Notes under the pieces: generated by a model
What the model was told of the DNA's origin: nothing
Databases searched by the model: none
The model's input: only the letters and a program-made list of their open reading frames with translations
Position numbers and translations under genes: made by a program
Assembly (NCBI GenBank): GCA_045589635.1
Contig: JAZNPJ010000001.1
Location: 1-27,612, forward strand
DNA from: Clostridia bacterium
Lineage (GTDB): Bacteria; Bacillota; Clostridia; UBA1381
Reading direction: 5' to 3'
DNA: 27,612 nucleotides
Part shown: one piece after another, positions 4,405-9,459 of the stretch
How positions within the stretch are numbered: the first letter of the stretch is position 1
How the letters are laid out: every line of letters starts with the position of its first letter

Positions 4405-5811
4405 CTAAAACGGAGTACAGGTATACATATCGCTGAAGCTTCCGTATGTTGCTATCTCACAGGTAAATGAAACATTATAGCTATCAGATACCCACTTGGG
4501 CACAGCTACCCCTTTTGGCATAAATACCAGAATATTTTTTTCGTTATCAGCATTTCTTTTGTCAAGTGGAAGTACATTTTTAAATGGTGAGCCTTGCGAG
4601 ATTTTTGGTCTGTAAATCGGTTTTTGCGGCTCATAGTACGATAAAACGCCATACAGATGTGAATCCTGATAACATACTATAGAATCGTATTGGCTTTTTG
4701 CAAGTGTCTCTTCTATAAAGCTTTCTGATGAGTTATATTCAATATCATACGTGTATATATAAGCACTGCCACAAAAGAGAATGGCAACAAGAGTTATAAG
4801 TGTTATAACTGTTTTTGATTTTATGCGTCCTAATCCTAATGCAATAACTGTGAGTACAAATGGAATTGCTGGGATTGCATATCTTTCTATAAATACGGGT
4901 CTTACCGCAAGTGAGGCAATTATTCCTATAAGGCATGTGCCAACAAATACAAAAAGAACTGTTAAAGATAAGCTAAGCCTCTTAAAATCTGTCTTTTTGA
5001 ACATTACAATAAGAGATAATACAAAAACTATTGCAAAAAACGGTATAAAAAATCGGGTATAATCTCCGCAACCGAGCCATACATTAAAAAATTCTTTTAC
5101 TGTTTTAAGTGTTATGGGTGCAATCCAGTATTCATTTGTTACTTTTTCGGAAAGCTGTCCCAAAAATGATGACATCCATGGCACATATGCAACCACAAGC
5201 GCCGCAGCAGATAAAAACCACTTCGATACTTTATATCTGTAAACTGAGGCAAGAAGAAGCATAAAGCTTATTACAAGCACCGAAACAAATGCAAAATAGT
5301 GCAAATATGCACTGAGTATTGTAAAGATGGTATATATTATCCATAAACAACGCTTATCCTCTGTAACTGCACGGTAAGCATATATACCAGAGCCAAAAAC
5401 TGCAAAGGACGCCCACGTATACATTCTTATCTCTACCGAGTATATCTGGTAAAGCGGTAATAAAAGCATAGCAGCTACAAAAATCAGTCCCTCTTTGTGG
5501 GTAAAGACTTTAGAAATGTTTCGATACCCCATTATCATTGTAAGTATAAGAGGTATAATAGAAAAGATTTTTGTAAATATAAGCTCTGTCCCAAATATCA
5601 TACAAAATATCTTTAACCCAAAGTAGTACAGAGGGGGATGTACGTCTGCAGCGGTGATTTTGCAAATGTCCGAAAAACTGTGCCCAATCATTGCAAGAGA
5701 GTATGCCTCATCATACCACACGTTGTTGTTAAAAATCAAAGAGCTATATAACAATGCGCCTAAGATTATAAATATTATAAAAGCTATGTGATAACCTATA
5801 TTCTTTTTCAT
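4405..5811 (-). CDS. GT-C fold integral-membrane glycosyltransferase (GT39/PMT_2-like)
   Basis: About 11-13 hydrophobic segments; first-loop WYDEAYS, then DVHPPLYY, EIRMY and ERY motifs typical of PMT_2/ArnT-like enzymes; soluble C-terminal domain. Confidence 0.8.
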   Translation of the reverse strand: MKKNIGYHIAFIIFIILGALLYSSLIFNNNVWYDEAYSLAMIGHSFSDICKITAADVHPPLYYFGLKIFCMIFGTELIFTKIFSIIPLILTMIMGYRNISKVFTHKEGLIFVAAMLLLPLYQIYSVEIRMYTWASFAVFGSGIYAYRAVTEDKRCLWIIYTIFTILSAYLHYFAFVSVLVISFMLLLASVYRYKVSKWFLSAAALVVAYVPWMSSFLGQLSEKVTNEYWIAPITLKTVKEFFNVWLGCGDYTRFFIPFFAIVFVLSLIVMFKKTDFKRLSLSLTVLFVFVGTCLIGIIASLAVRPVFIERYAIPAIPFVLTVIALGLGRIKSKTVITLITLVAILFCGSAYIYTYDIEYNSSESFIEETLAKSQYDSIVCYQDSHLYGVLSYYEPQKPIYRPKISQGSPFKNVLPLDKRNADNEKNILVFMPKGVAVPKWVSDSYNVSFTCEIATYGSFSDMYTCTPF

Positions 5812-5874
5812 TTATATATTTAAACTCCTATCCCGACGGTATAAACCGCAAAAATAAAATAGTTAAACATATAA

Positions 5875-5903
5875 ATTTTAACATAAAAGCCTTTGTTTGT
5901 CAA
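5875..5903 (-). promoter_or_regulatory. Sigma-A promoter of the glycosyltransferase gene
   Basis: Minus strand TTGACA, 17 nt, TG-n-TAAAAT (extended -10). Confidence 0.75.
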
Positions 5904-5960
5904 ATTTAAGGGTGTATACAATAAAAACATACCAAAAAACAACAAAAAGTTATCATAATA

Positions 5961-5989
5961 TTGACATTGTTAAAATTACGTGATAAAAT
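5961..5989 (+). promoter_or_regulatory. Sigma-A promoter of the amino-acid ABC transporter operon (divergent from the GT promoter)
   Basis: TTGACA, 17 nt, TG-n-TAAAAT; AAGGAG RBS downstream. Confidence 0.8.
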
Positions 5990-6027
5990 GTAGTAGTTAA
6001 AATATTTTTTAAAGGAGAATACATATT

Positions 6028-6849
6028 ATGAAAAAACTTTTAGTAATGGCAATGGCGGCTGTTATGGCTCTTACAATGGCAGCTTGCGGACAGGGACAAA
6101 AAACAAACGATAAGCTTGCTATAATCGATAAAGACTATCCGTCAGAGGAATACGGAATAGCTTTCAGAAAAGGCTCAGACGTTACAGAAGCAGTTAACAA
6201 TGCAATGGTTGAGCTTACAAAAGAAGGTAAGCTCGGCGAAATCGCAAGTGCATACGGACTAAACGAGTTGTTGCTTGTTGACGAAACAAATGCAAATATT
6301 TCTCAGTCAGAAATCACACTAAAAGAGCTTGACGAAATCAAGGAAAGCGGTGTTTTAAAGATAGGTTATACAATTATGAAGCCTCTTAACTACACAGACG
6401 AAGAGGGCAAGTTCGTAGGCTTTGAAACAGAATTTGCAACTGCAGTTTGCGAAAAGCTTGGTGTAGTTCCTGAATTTATAGAGATTGAATGGGCTGCAAA
6501 GGAAATTGAGCTTAACTCAAAGAATATCGACTGTATCTGGAACGGTATGACAATTACCGAAGAAAGAATGGAAAATATGTCAATAACAATGCCTTATCTT
6601 GCAAACAGACAGGTACTTGTTGTAAGAGAAGAAAATGTTGACAAGTTCAGCGCAAATCTTGACGGTGCAGTTGTTATAGCAGAGGGCGGCAGTGCTGGTG
6701 AAGAATTAGCAACAACCCAGGAGGATTTTGCAAATGCAGAGTATACAGCTGTTGCATCACAGGCAACTGCTCTTATGGACGTTGCAGCAGGCACATCTGA
6801 CGTTGCAGTTATAGACTATGTAATGGCAGGCAGCTCAATAAATAAGTAA
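6028..6849 (+). CDS. Polar amino-acid ABC transporter substrate-binding lipoprotein (SBP_bac_3 family), circularly permuted
   Basis: Lipobox MAAC at residue 20. Family motifs are present (LKIGYT..PLNY.DEEG...GFE, IDCIWNGMTITEER, PYLANRQVLVV, DVAVID, EEYGIAFRKG), but the normally C-terminal EEYGIAFRKG...AYGL block comes first. Confidence 0.9.
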   Translation: MKKLLVMAMAAVMALTMAACGQGQKTNDKLAIIDKDYPSEEYGIAFRKGSDVTEAVNNAMVELTKEGKLGEIASAYGLNELLLVDETNANISQSEITLKELDEIKESGVLKIGYTIMKPLNYTDEEGKFVGFETEFATAVCEKLGVVPEFIEIEWAAKEIELNSKNIDCIWNGMTITEERMENMSITMPYLANRQVLVVREENVDKFSANLDGAVVIAEGGSAGEELATTQEDFANAEYTAVASQATALMDVAAGTSDVAVIDYVMAGSSINK

Positions 6850-6870
6850 TTTTAAATAAATTCTTTTCTG

Positions 6871-6902
6871 ACACCGTTTTGTTCGTATGAACAAAACGGT
6901 GT
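6871..6902. other. Intercistronic hairpin after the SBP gene (mRNA stabiliser or partial terminator)
   Basis: Perfect 14-bp stem ACACCGTTTTGTTC-GTAT-GAACAAAACGGTGT without a clear U-tract. Confidence 0.7.
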
Positions 6903-6973
6903 TACGTATAATTTAATCCAAATATTGTTTGTCCAAAAGAAAAAGACTTAATTTGCGGACAGAAAGGCATAAT

Positions 6974-7612
6974 ATGAATGTATGGTTAGAGCTTTTTGAG
7001 GGCTTTAAATATAATTTAATAATATTCTTTGGTACAATAGCGGCGGCAGTCCCCCTAGGACTTTTAATAACATTTTGTTCAATGTCAAAATTTAAGCCGC
7101 TCTCTTACATATCAAAGCTTTTTGTGTGGATAATCAGAGGAACACCGCTTATGCTTCAGCTTTTTGTTGTTGCATATGCACCAGGACTTTTGTTTGACAT
7201 TCCTATGAAATCGCGAATGATGGCTACTTTTATTGCTTTTATTATAAACTATGCCGCATACTTTTCCGAAATATACAGAGGCGGAATAGAGAGCATACCA
7301 AAAGGTCAGTATGAGGCGGGTCAGGTGCTTGGTCTTACAAAAATACAGGTATTTACCAAAATTGTTCTGTTTCAGGTGGTAAAAAGAATTGTTCCGCCTA
7401 TGGGTAATGAGATTATTACACTTGTTAAGGATACGTCTTTATCAAGAATTATAGGCGTTGGAGAAATTATAATGAGTGCGGAGCGCTTTTCGAAGAACGG
7501 AGGTCTTATATGGCCATTGTTCTCGACGGGATTATTCTTCCTTGCAATGGGTGGAATATTAACCGTTCTTTTTAGTAAAATCGAAAAGAAAATGAGCTAT
7601 TATGACGCATAA
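6974..7612 (+). CDS. Polar amino-acid ABC transporter permease (HisM/GlnP family)
   Basis: IRGTPLMLQLF, NYAAYFSEIYRGGIESIPKGQYEAGQVLG (EAA motif), KDTSL. Start at ATG 6974, 6 nt after AAAGG. Confidence 0.93.
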   Translation: MNVWLELFEGFKYNLIIFFGTIAAAVPLGLLITFCSMSKFKPLSYISKLFVWIIRGTPLMLQLFVVAYAPGLLFDIPMKSRMMATFIAFIINYAAYFSEIYRGGIESIPKGQYEAGQVLGLTKIQVFTKIVLFQVVKRIVPPMGNEIITLVKDTSLSRIIGVGEIIMSAERFSKNGGLIWPLFSTGLFFLAMGGILTVLFSKIEKKMSYYDA

Positions 7613-7615
7613 AGG

Positions 7616-7789
7616 AGGATAAACGTGATTTTTCACGTTTATCCTTCGGCAGATTTTATTGCACCACCGAAATTTTCGCACCCATAAAGGTGCGAAACGG
7701 TGATGTGCATAATTTCCATTATACGCCTTGTCTGTCCACAGGCAGGGCGGCAATTACTATTTGTGGACAGAAAGGCTATGGAAATTATA
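7616..7789. repeat. Three successive inverted repeats in the permease-ATPase spacer
   Basis: AGGATAAACGTGA/TCACGTTTATCCT (7616-7645); TTTCGCACC/GGTGCGAAA with CACCG/CGGTG extension (7665-7702); ATAATTTCCAT..TCTGTCCACA/TGTGGACAGA..ATGGAAATTAT (7709-7788). Confidence 0.8.
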
Positions 7790-8572
7790 ATGGCAATTCT
7801 TGAAGTTAAGAACATACATAAAAGCTTTGGAAAAACAAAGGTTTTAAAAGGAATAGACTTTTCTATGGAAGAGGGCAGTATACTTGCAGTACTTGGTTCC
7901 TCGGGCAGCGGAAAAACAACAATACTAAGATGTATAAATTTTCTGGAAACTGCCGATAAGGGACAAATTTATGTTGACGGAAAACTGATTTTTGACGGTG
8001 ATGATACAACAAAACTAAGTGCGTCGCAAATACGCGAAAGACAATTAAACTTCGGACTTGTTTTTCAGTCGTTTAATTTGTTCCCGCAGTATACCGCGCT
8101 TGAGAATGTTATGCTTGCACCAAAAGAGCTTGCAAAAGAGAGAGAGGACTATAAAAAGAACAAAGCACAGATTTTAGAAGAAATAAAAGAAGAGGCTATT
8201 GCACTTCTCACGAGGGTGGGACTTGAAAATAAGCTAAATAACTATCCCAGTCAGCTCTCGGGCGGACAGCAACAACGTGTTTCCATTGCAAGGGCGTTGG
8301 CACTAAAACCAAAAATATTATTCTTTGATGAGCCGACTTCCGCGCTTGACCCCGAGCTTACGGGCGAAATTTTAAGAGTAATAAAGAGCCTTGCGCAAAA
8401 GAAAATGACAATGGTTATTGTTACTCACGAAATAGAATTTGCAAAGAATGTTGCTGACGAAATAATCTTTATGAACGACGGTGTTATTTTGGAAAGAGGA
8501 ACACCCGAAGAGGTAATTGACAATCCCAAAAACCAGAGAACAAGGGAATTTTTAAGCAAACTTATGGAATAA
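7790..8572 (+). CDS. Polar amino-acid ABC transporter ATP-binding protein (GlnQ family)
   Basis: Walker A GSSGSGKT, VFQSFNLFP, signature LSGGQQQRV, Walker B LFFDEPTSALDPE, H-loop VTHE. Start ambiguous (7778 or 7790). Confidence 0.95.
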   Translation: MAILEVKNIHKSFGKTKVLKGIDFSMEEGSILAVLGSSGSGKTTILRCINFLETADKGQIYVDGKLIFDGDDTTKLSASQIRERQLNFGLVFQSFNLFPQYTALENVMLAPKELAKEREDYKKNKAQILEEIKEEAIALLTRVGLENKLNNYPSQLSGGQQQRVSIARALALKPKILFFDEPTSALDPELTGEILRVIKSLAQKKMTMVIVTHEIEFAKNVADEIIFMNDGVILERGTPEEVIDNPKNQRTREFLSKLME

Positions 8573-8739
8573 TAGCACTTCAAAAGGTCTGGTCCCGGTC
8601 TGAATAAAATTGCCCATCTCACCATTTTAAAAAGCTTGGAGTATCAACATACGCCGTCGCTTTTTTAAACGGCAATCTGAACAATTTTCTTTCAGACCCA
8701 TTTATTGTATTATAGACGTTAAAAAGGTGGGTTATAAAA

Positions 8740-9459
8740 ATGAAAAGAAAAGATATACTAAAAAGACTTTCGCTTTTATTTGTTATGGTCGCTTTAAGTG
8801 TTTGTACAGTATCATGTGCAGGCAAGGAGGCGCCTAAAAAAAGCTCGCTTGTTTCGCCTGATAAGCCTGTTACATCAAAGGTGGACAAGGACAAAAAAGA
8901 AGATAAAACAGAAGCAGAAAATGAAGACAAGCCTCAGAGTACACAAAAAGCTGATACACCGACAGCACCTACTGAATACAAGGAGGGCAAGCTTGAGGAA
9001 AAAACCTTTGAGAGTGAGTATATAGGTGTTAAGTTTAATCTTCCCCAAGGGTACAAAATGTATAACCGCGAACAGGTTGAGGCTATAATGGCAGAGCTTG
9101 TAGAAGACGACAGTACAGTCGGCGATATGAGCTACGAAACAATAATTCACAATGAGCAGGGCGATGTACAGGTTGTTATAGCGGTTGACCGAAACAAAGG
9201 TCAATACAGTGAGGAGGAGTATCTTGGCGGAATAGCTAACGGATACAAACAGATACCAACTGCCCAGATAAGCGAAGAAATTTCATATGCAACTATTGCA
9301 GGAATGGAGTTTTCGGCAATAGAGATATCAAGCGGTGATACATCAATGCTTCATTGTGTAAGGAAAAAGAATAGTGATATGCTCTATTACGTAATTACGT
9401 ATCCAAAGGGAAATATCGACGCGGTACAGACAGTAATGAATGCATTTGTACCAATGTAA
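8740..9459 (+). CDS. Putative lipoprotein of unknown function
   Basis: Signal peptide ending in a lipobox-like TVSC, a charged low-complexity linker (K/E/D/P/T), then a ~150-aa globular domain I cannot assign with confidence. Confidence 0.65.
   Translation: MKRKDILKRLSLLFVMVALSVCTVSCAGKEAPKKSSLVSPDKPVTSKVDKDKKEDKTEAENEDKPQSTQKADTPTAPTEYKEGKLEEKTFESEYIGVKFNLPQGYKMYNREQVEAIMAELVEDDSTVGDMSYETIIHNEQGDVQVVIAVDRNKGQYSEEEYLGGIANGYKQIPTAQISEEISYATIAGMEFSAIEISSGDTSMLHCVRKKNSDMLYYVITYPKGNIDAVQTVMNAFVPM

Follow-up and report, generated by a model that had tools for sequence, protein, structure and literature searches.

A probable young natural circular permutant among the family-3 binding lipoproteins of gut Clostridia

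Introduction

The gene at positions 6028–6849 of the window, by which we mean the whole 27,612-nucleotide stretch of DNA from a Clostridia bacterium analysed here, raises a simple question: has the chain of an amino-acid receptor been rotated in nature, so that its last part now comes first, and if so, does the protein still work, how recently did the change occur and by what route? As a rule, a natural permutation comes to notice only when distant proteins are compared, and its origin is then argued from models. Engineered circularly permuted binding proteins are used as biosensor scaffolds and tell us that the fold tolerates new termini, but the permutant considered here would be of natural origin. 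Though permutation is already known from other classes of substrate-binding protein (SBP), our search of the full-text literature found no description of natural permutation in the family-3 amino-acid binders; the single paper that mentions both circular permutation and PF00497 deals with an unrelated matter.

Results

Translation of the open frame at 6028–6849 on the forward strand agrees with a sequence-only reading of this DNA, as the coordinates, the lipobox at Cys20 and the residue strings of the segment at aa 30–78 (from nt 6115) were all correct; L101 opens an LDEIKESG stretch. The parts of the gene and its neighbours are given in Table 1. The relocated segment consists of the second hinge strand, a lobe-I strand and two terminal helices, which in canonical relatives form the C-terminus. 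Six residues of the tether precede the first residue that aligns to the profile of canonical relatives described below. The linker is derived from the canonical post-lipobox tether, as the second profile segment starts at position 30, within that tether, and the old termini are joined by some 15–20 residues. The body holds the canonical N-terminal part of lobe I, the first hinge strand and the entire lobe II, and carries the ligand-binding motifs GMTITEER (173–180, with the Arg at 180) and VIDYV (261–265, with the Asp at 263). Arg180 aligns with the equivalent motif of 3hv1 and of AncCDT-1. We take Arg180 and Asp263 to be the equivalents of R77 and D161 of HisJ/LAO, that is the Arg that binds the alpha-carboxylate and the Asp that binds the alpha-amino group.

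Table 1. Features of the permuted binding-protein gene and its operon, in window coordinates
Feature	Position	Strand	Details and basis
Sigma-70-type promoter	5961..5989	+	-35 TTGACA, 17-nt spacer, extended -10 TG-n-TAAAAT
Ribosome-binding site GGAG	6014..6017	+	10 nt 5' of ATG; sequence read
Binding-lipoprotein ORF	6028-6849	+	273 aa, 822 nt; Cys20 lipobox
Lipoprotein signal peptide and lipobox, last residue Cys20	6028..6087	+	Translation; canonical HMM positions 1-27 = aa 1-27
Short tether aa 21-29, lipidated Cys to fold	6088..6114	+	HMM alignment
Relocated segment aa 30-84	6115..6279	+	PDB matches, P0005 match, HMM positions 215-272
Linker aa 85-99, old C-terminus to old N-terminus	6280..6324	+	HMM alignment; model
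Body aa 100-273 and stop	6325..6849	+	PDB, P0005 and HMM alignments; VIA-align
16-bp stem-loop between binding-protein and permease genes	6869..6904	+	Perfect; -24.1 kcal/mol, z -5.4; without strong U-tract
ABC permease (BPD_transp_1), 212 aa	6974..7612	+	E 1.3e-20; 93-99% identity in three sister species
ABC ATPase (ABC_tran)	7790..8572	+	E 5.9e-35; 90-97% identity among four species

The same reading had proposed a circular permutant with its native termini joined and new termini opened before the second hinge strand, in which case the protein in its native order should match relatives as two out-of-order pieces. Two such pieces were found in each of three comparisons, with PDB chains, with the closest canonical homologue (P0005) and with a profile of 273 positions (the canonical HMM) that we built from 127 canonical relatives. 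When phmmer was run against the PDB it returned 83 sequences at E<=0.001 (best E 1.8e-23), in which aa 96–269 generally match the first ~175–185 residues and a weaker piece, aa 26–75, the last ~50. For instance, residues 96–267 match 11–185 of AncCDT-1 (5t0w) and residues 26–70 match 191–238, and 3hv1 gives the same swapped pattern. Against P0005, aa 96–271 match 32–208 (278 bits) and aa 29–84 match 216–271 (55 bits). The canonical HMM is likewise not colinear with the native sequence, and its two pieces come in swapped order, with aa 27–84 on positions 215–272 (65.8 bits) and aa 92–272 on positions 30–210 (292.6 bits). At most 4 profile positions are lost at the cut, and each of the two profile stretches is covered once, which is to say that the protein is a single unit and not a multi-unit tandem. 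Pfam SBP_bac_3 (PF00497) scores 96.7 bits over two stretches against a cut-off of 26.4, and tblastn of P0005 on the window's own genome finds the two swapped pieces inside one open frame. The colinear N-to-C order of the SBP_bac_3 fold elements is absent from this protein, and to judge from these scores the two swapped homologous pieces lie far beyond chance.

Structure prediction, which had been suggested as a further check, was done with AlphaFold2, for which the permutant was accompanied by 37 sequences colinear with it, drawn from other same-cut permutants and, as windows, from tandem arrays; it gave a pLDDT of 89.9 and a pTM of 0.82. Residues 30–80 are modelled at pLDDT 94–97, and the linker, at ~80, is without regular structure. 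The model has 21 elements, namely E30–33, E39–47, H52–65 and H68–75 followed by 17 from H100–107 to H264–270. The model of P0005 (pLDDT 91.5) runs from H36–43 to H201–207 and then through E217–220, E226–234, H239–252 and H255–262, to which the four relocated elements correspond; barring one short extra helix in P0005 (H169–172), the element list of the permutant is an exact cyclic rotation of that of P0005. Sequential alignment to LAO covers LAO 1–172 for the permutant (167 residues, Z 13.0) and LAO 1–237 for P0005 (227 residues, Z 24.5), and VIA-align places model residues 96/102 to 273 on the N-terminal ~172–195 residues of solved SBPs (Z 13–15, 165–178 residues). Both Foldseek and VIA-align are sequential and align just aa ~96–273, with aa 30–78 outside their superposition, and our placement of the latter in space draws on sequence homology and on the confidence of the model. 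In the model the new C-terminus follows the last helix of lobe II, and only a few residues separate the new N-terminus from the second inter-lobe strand (residues 186–194 in the LAO structure) that follows it. The predicted fold is the ordinary bilobed type II fold with its chain permuted. Taken together, the out-of-order matches and the models agree with the proposed permutation, and support the reading of the product as a family-3 (GlnH/HisJ/ArtJ-type) binding lipoprotein whose chain has been circularly permuted in nature.

A swapped order of segments could also be produced by a local mis-join in a metagenome-assembled genome (MAG), and the source of the window is indeed such a genome and a fragmented one (1.52 Mb in 213 contigs, 84% complete). 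Moreover the gene contains a highly conserved DNA motif, at roughly 6506–6587, where contigs of many organisms pile up, and it is precisely there that a related contig, L008, has the look of a chimera. However, three further species-level genomes of the genus carry the 273-codon gene, 96, 92 and 85% identical to that of the window and placed on contigs of 180–244 kb, and in all four species the genes on either side of it are fully syntenic. The permuted gene occurs in one further MAG and in one ENA metagenome contig, where the upstream gene is different. The mapping check that had been proposed against mis-assembly points the same way, as Logan contigs from four unrelated studies bridge all of the junctions: one at 5850–6159 spans the promoter, the signal peptide and the start of the relocated segment, those at 6149–6343 and 6247–6494 span the relocated segment, linker and body, and those at 6652–7050 and 6764–6915 span the 3' end and the intergenic hairpin. 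These contigs are short and of low depth, so that every junction is bridged and the whole gene is spanned by none. The synonymous divergence of 0.3–0.85, with dN/dS near 0.1, implies long independent evolution of the exact permuted arrangement. Given the syntenic sister genomes, the further MAG, the ENA contig and the bridging contigs, we regard mis-assembly as ruled out, its probability being close to nil.

Several features of the metagenome contigs are worth describing in their own right. Between 6506 and 6587 their depth rises 5- to 50-fold, which we attribute to near-identical DNA encoding the IDCIWNGMTIT motif in many organisms, and chimeric contigs are likely to arise here with particular frequency, perhaps along with recombination between paralogues. 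Loose contig ends at 6821/6831 run into a canonical loop (G-S-V-G-E-G-T-D-Y), as expected from normal-order relatives resident in the same communities. The contig L008 (ENA ERZ27302493 k141_906384) encodes, at 643–1251, a 202-aa "permutant" (P0004); it has 97.5% DNA identity to L002 up to about codon 176, at the conserved IDCIWNGMTI motif, and past this point it continues with an ending typical of a second class of permutants, cut near profile position 140 (see below), and then a permease gene. The likeliest explanation of L008 is a chimeric assembly with its join at the motif; a real recombinant without lobe II is less likely.

The gene is under purifying selection. All six alleles have 822 nt, without indels and with the same C-terminus, and all six keep the position of the lipobox Cys. 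Pairwise dN/dS among them (dS up to 0.85) is 0.03–0.13 for the whole gene and 0–0.16 for the relocated segment; in the linker it is mostly 0.07–0.29 (range 0–0.54) and exceeds that of the rest of the gene in most pairs.

The sequence-only reading had considered the gene functional, on the grounds of a consensus promoter, a ribosome-binding site and an intact permease and ATPase. Each of these was found: the promoter has 11 of 12 consensus matches with the upstream TG present, GGAG stands before the start codon, and the two transporter genes, which follow directly downstream, carry the Pfam domains BPD_transp_1 and ABC_tran. The start of the ATPase is uncertain, as its frame is open from 7700 with an ATG at 7778 or at 7790. 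Canonical relatives are accompanied by the same permease/ATPase cassette. Searches of the three sister genomes (96–99% complete) found no other homologue at E<=1e-20, which leaves the adjacent permease and ATPase with no candidate receptor but the permuted protein. NCBIfam gave as best matches the cystine and the Lys/Arg/Orn binders, both far below the cut-offs, and searches of RNA runs did not find the sequence of the gene in any of them. From its sequence and neighbourhood, and with dN/dS near 0.1, the product looks like a functional substrate-binding lipoprotein of a putative polar-amino-acid ABC importer. The stem-loop that follows the gene is likely to be an internal partial terminator or an mRNA stabiliser, and fits the mechanism described for Clostridia ABC operons, in which internal partial terminators set the excess of the binding protein (PMC9045158).

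Three further observations concern the surroundings of these genes. The string TTGTTTGTCCAAA is present at window position 6925. The operon is flanked on one side by a 468-aa multi-pass membrane protein (4405–5811, reverse strand) that has no Pfam match, and on the other by a 239-aa lipoprotein (8740–9459, forward strand) with a weak PsbP_2 match alone. Both flanking genes are syntenic in the four species and fast-evolving (62–89% and 63–90% identity); the transporter genes, by comparison, are 85–99% identical.

A different view of the gene would be that it is a decaying, non-functional remnant of a tandem duplication, or that its product needs a domain-swapped dimer in order to fold. An unusually short tether would be in keeping with this, as would the closest solved relative class, which includes TmArgBP (entries 4prs/6svf), known for swapping of its C-terminal helix. 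Against this, the low dN/dS extends to the relocated segment, six alleles are free of indels, the monomer model is confident, the promoter and ribosome-binding site are strong, and the gene is the sole close homologue beside an intact permease (93–99%) and ATPase (90–97%). The dN/dS values and the conservation of length rule out a pseudogene or remnant, and we consider the alternative as a whole very unlikely.

To place the event in time we looked for relatives of every kind, as had been recommended, and colinear, tandem and permuted homologues were all found in the wider clade. A search of 5.8 billion sequences shows that the closest proteins are lipoproteins in normal order, 65–76% identical over aa ~100–273, the nearest of them at 70–76%. 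Since the closest relatives have the normal order, the permutation is recent. In trees of re-ordered units the query clade is nested within a canonical clade with support of 97–98, beside P0005 and P0006. The permuted gene is carried by four small-genome species of the genus, and six of the ten other species have normal-order genes at 50–62% identity. By these sequence comparisons the event falls between ~70% and 85% protein identity, which makes it very young as natural permutations go.

Proteins permuted at the same point also occur in further genera and families within the order (44–47% identity), a distribution that would fit an ancient permuted family that was inherited vertically and came to resemble the normal-order proteins through later gene conversion of the body. 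However, both parts of our protein are closest to canonical proteins (76% for the body and 65–72% for the relocated segment) and far from the other same-cut permutants (36–52% and 33–53%, respectively). The identities of the two segments correlate across 260 proteins with r 0.87, which leaves no mosaic signal. A single clade of all 14 same-cut permutants is rejected by the AU test (delta lnL 726, p 2.5e-6), and the normal order of six of the ten other species of the genus speaks against the idea as well. Trees, AU test and identities together reject a single ancient origin of the same-cut permutants, and we judge an ancient family to be highly improbable.

Within the genomes of the order, the nearest normal-order genes (64–71%) lie in two other genera of the family (g30 and g6), so the operon may have moved horizontally, either before or after the rearrangement. 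The cassette of the permutant species as a whole is closer to those of other genera (G015 and G099–G125; g6 and g30) than to those of their own genus (G002–G009): the binding-protein body is 64–71% identical to the former and 50–62% to the latter, and the permease 82.5% (in G015) and 68–70%. This likeness and the non-syntenic flanks hint at horizontal transfer or at sorting of paralogues.

We then considered the route. Tandem duplication followed by trimming is a plausible origin in this lineage. Near this lineage our search of 1.84 billion representatives found no tandem or partly trimmed intermediate, though the word-index search returns only proteins up to 1.75 times the length of the query. 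At the DNA level we found no rearrangement scar between 6000 and 6930, where direct repeats are short and at chance level; AAACAAA stands at both ends of the relocated segment and is too short to count.

Farther out in the clade the picture is richer. We carried out an exhaustive profile search of the same 1.84 billion representatives and mapped the matches on the canonical HMM. Among single-unit lipoproteins this gave four breakpoint classes, each with its own signal peptide and lipobox: near profile position 210, the class of our gene (14 representatives), near 140–150 (10), near 170 (9) and near 62 (9). Every class is scattered over the tree, the starred branches forcing 4–8 changes per class, and the gene in the window represents one of many independent permutation events in this clade of gut Clostridia. 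Whatever the class, the first piece extends to profile position ~267–272, the canonical C-terminus, and the second piece starts at ~26–34 (up to 47 in a few), within the former tether after the lipobox. This is the signature expected of in-frame tandem fusion, or of excision of a unit from an array. The clade does contain tandem arrays of 2–8 units, and in the tree a protein of two units, P0143, is the sister of a same-cut permutant. Best matches in 239 genomes of the order include colinear same-cut proteins at 44–47% in ten genomes beyond the four-species clade of the query, and a match of the type cut near 140 in seven genomes. The AlphaFold DB clusters also contain colinear matches, which are annotated merely as family-3 solute-binding proteins.

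Among the arrays, P0121–P0126 are very long proteins of 2–8 tandem family-3 binding units. The largest, P0121, has 2001 aa and eight units, and the same sequence is found on several JGI/ENA contigs. Its units pair 1/5, 2/6, 3/7 and 4/8 in the tree, which suggests duplication of a four-unit block. A normal-order protein from ENA, P0102 (378 aa), repeats its first ~95 mature residues exactly within the chain, which reflects either a tandem duplication of part of the gene (and possibly an early intermediate) or an error of assembly. In two other genomes of the order, cassettes of the same type as that of the window are seen with differently cut binding proteins. At L029 (G025:C9), ~7944–8669, the binding protein apparently belongs to the class cut near 140, with query aa 207–271 followed by 16–200. 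A similar case is L030 (G024:C30), ~8429–8992, where only the piece corresponding to query 21–205 was matched and where we infer the same class.

Discussion

The best explanation of the data as a whole, to which we give a probability of roughly 0.88, is that the gene encodes a working permuted receptor of an ABC importer that arose recently from a normal-order ancestor, by tandem fusion and trimming. We would place the permutation in the last ancestor shared by the four small-genome species, which belong to a single Clostridia genus; most likely two tandem copies were fused in frame and the product was then trimmed at both ends. In the resulting protein the chain would run, after Cys20 and a tether of ~6–9 residues, through the second hinge strand, the last strand and the two helices of lobe I, cross a linker of ~15–20 residues (the former N-terminal tether) into the former N-terminus, and end in the loop that follows the last helix of lobe II. 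The ligand is expected to be held by the Thr and Arg of GMTITEER and the Asp of VIDYV, all of which lie in the unbroken body, and for this reason capture of the ligand and Venus-flytrap closure should match those of canonical relatives. What changes is the anchor, whose long tether to lobe I has given way to a short one next to the hinge. This new position may alter the dynamics of the protein or its docking on the permease; a tether of ~6–9 residues might restrict docking, which would argue for an altered rather than an unchanged function.

The systems most like this one are the canonical family-3 (cluster F) type II binders. The comparison covered LAO/HisJ (1lst/1hsl), GlnBP (1wdn), ArtJ (2q2a), TmArgBP (4prs), AncCDT-1 (5t0w) and the S. 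thermophilus protein 3hv1, which share the PF00497 family match. Common to these and the permutant are the Thr-x-x-x-x-Arg and Asp ligand motifs and the operon with a BPD_transp_1 permease and an ABC ATPase. The permutant differs in having its last ~55–60 residues first, and solved chains align colinearly to it over at most ~178 residues, whereas canonical P0005 aligns over 216–245. It differs too in its anchor, which adjoins hinge strand 2 through a tether of ~6–9 residues, in contrast to the canonical anchor at lobe I. A further point of comparison is the tandem pair of family-3 units SBD1-SBD2 in GlnPQ of L. lactis (6h30), which is joined by short linkers and represents the presumed type of intermediate, although our protein is a single unit that is not fused to the permease.

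One ABC binding lipoprotein already described as naturally permuted is TpMglB-2 (Tp0684) of Treponema pallidum, a type I glucose binder (PMC4990184). For it and its homologues, found chiefly among spirochaetes and Gram-positive gut bacteria with tethered binding proteins, the authors proposed a "Type Ic / Cluster Bc" class, and they speculated that permutation and membrane tethering may be linked (PMC4990184). The likeness is that of a natural, functional, permuted binding lipoprotein of an ABC importer, a description that from its sequence would extend to the protein studied here. However, TpMglB-2 is a type I (cluster B) sugar binder in which the first three N-lobe strands have moved to the C-terminus and a fourth hinge crossing has been added; our protein belongs to SBP_bac_3 with a predicted type II fold, without such a relocation of strands 1–3, and keeps two lobe crossings, which makes TpMglB-2 an analogue and not a relative. 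The permuted part of TpMglB-2 is only ~13% identical to the canonical part, which speaks for an ancient event, compared to 70–76% for the canonical relatives here.

Within the type II periplasmic-binding-protein fold itself, natural permutation relationships were found by CPSARST among the glycine-betaine binders OpuAC (2b4l) and ProX (1r9l, 1sw1), molybdate-binding proteins and CysB (PMC2395249). These lie between families, at less than 24% identity, and were detected by structure only (PMC2395249). The permutation in our protein, in contrast, lies inside one subfamily, is visible in sequence and occurred within a genus.

A broader idea is that binding lipoproteins of gut Clostridia have been permuted repeatedly through tandem arrays, and that the permutants were kept because the shift of the anchor tunes receptor closing or docking. 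We offer this as a tentative proposal that is rather unlikely to hold in full, but if it were true, the window would hold one of the youngest such events known, with both the route of origin and the effect on fitness directly testable. Normal-order relatives at 70–76% identity, tandem arrays and sister permutants with their cuts in three further loops are all available in one clade, and with them the route through duplication, fusion and trimming can be examined step by step. With matched natural pairs one could measure how a Venus-flytrap receptor responds to a change in the order of its chain or in the place of its anchor. In annotations, permuted binders appear as ordinary binding proteins, and profile matches to them are broken rather than colinear. 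They also offer naturally validated new termini for biosensor scaffolds. The main value of the gene at 6028–6849 is that it appears to be an unusually young and well-bracketed case in a repeatedly permuted clade.
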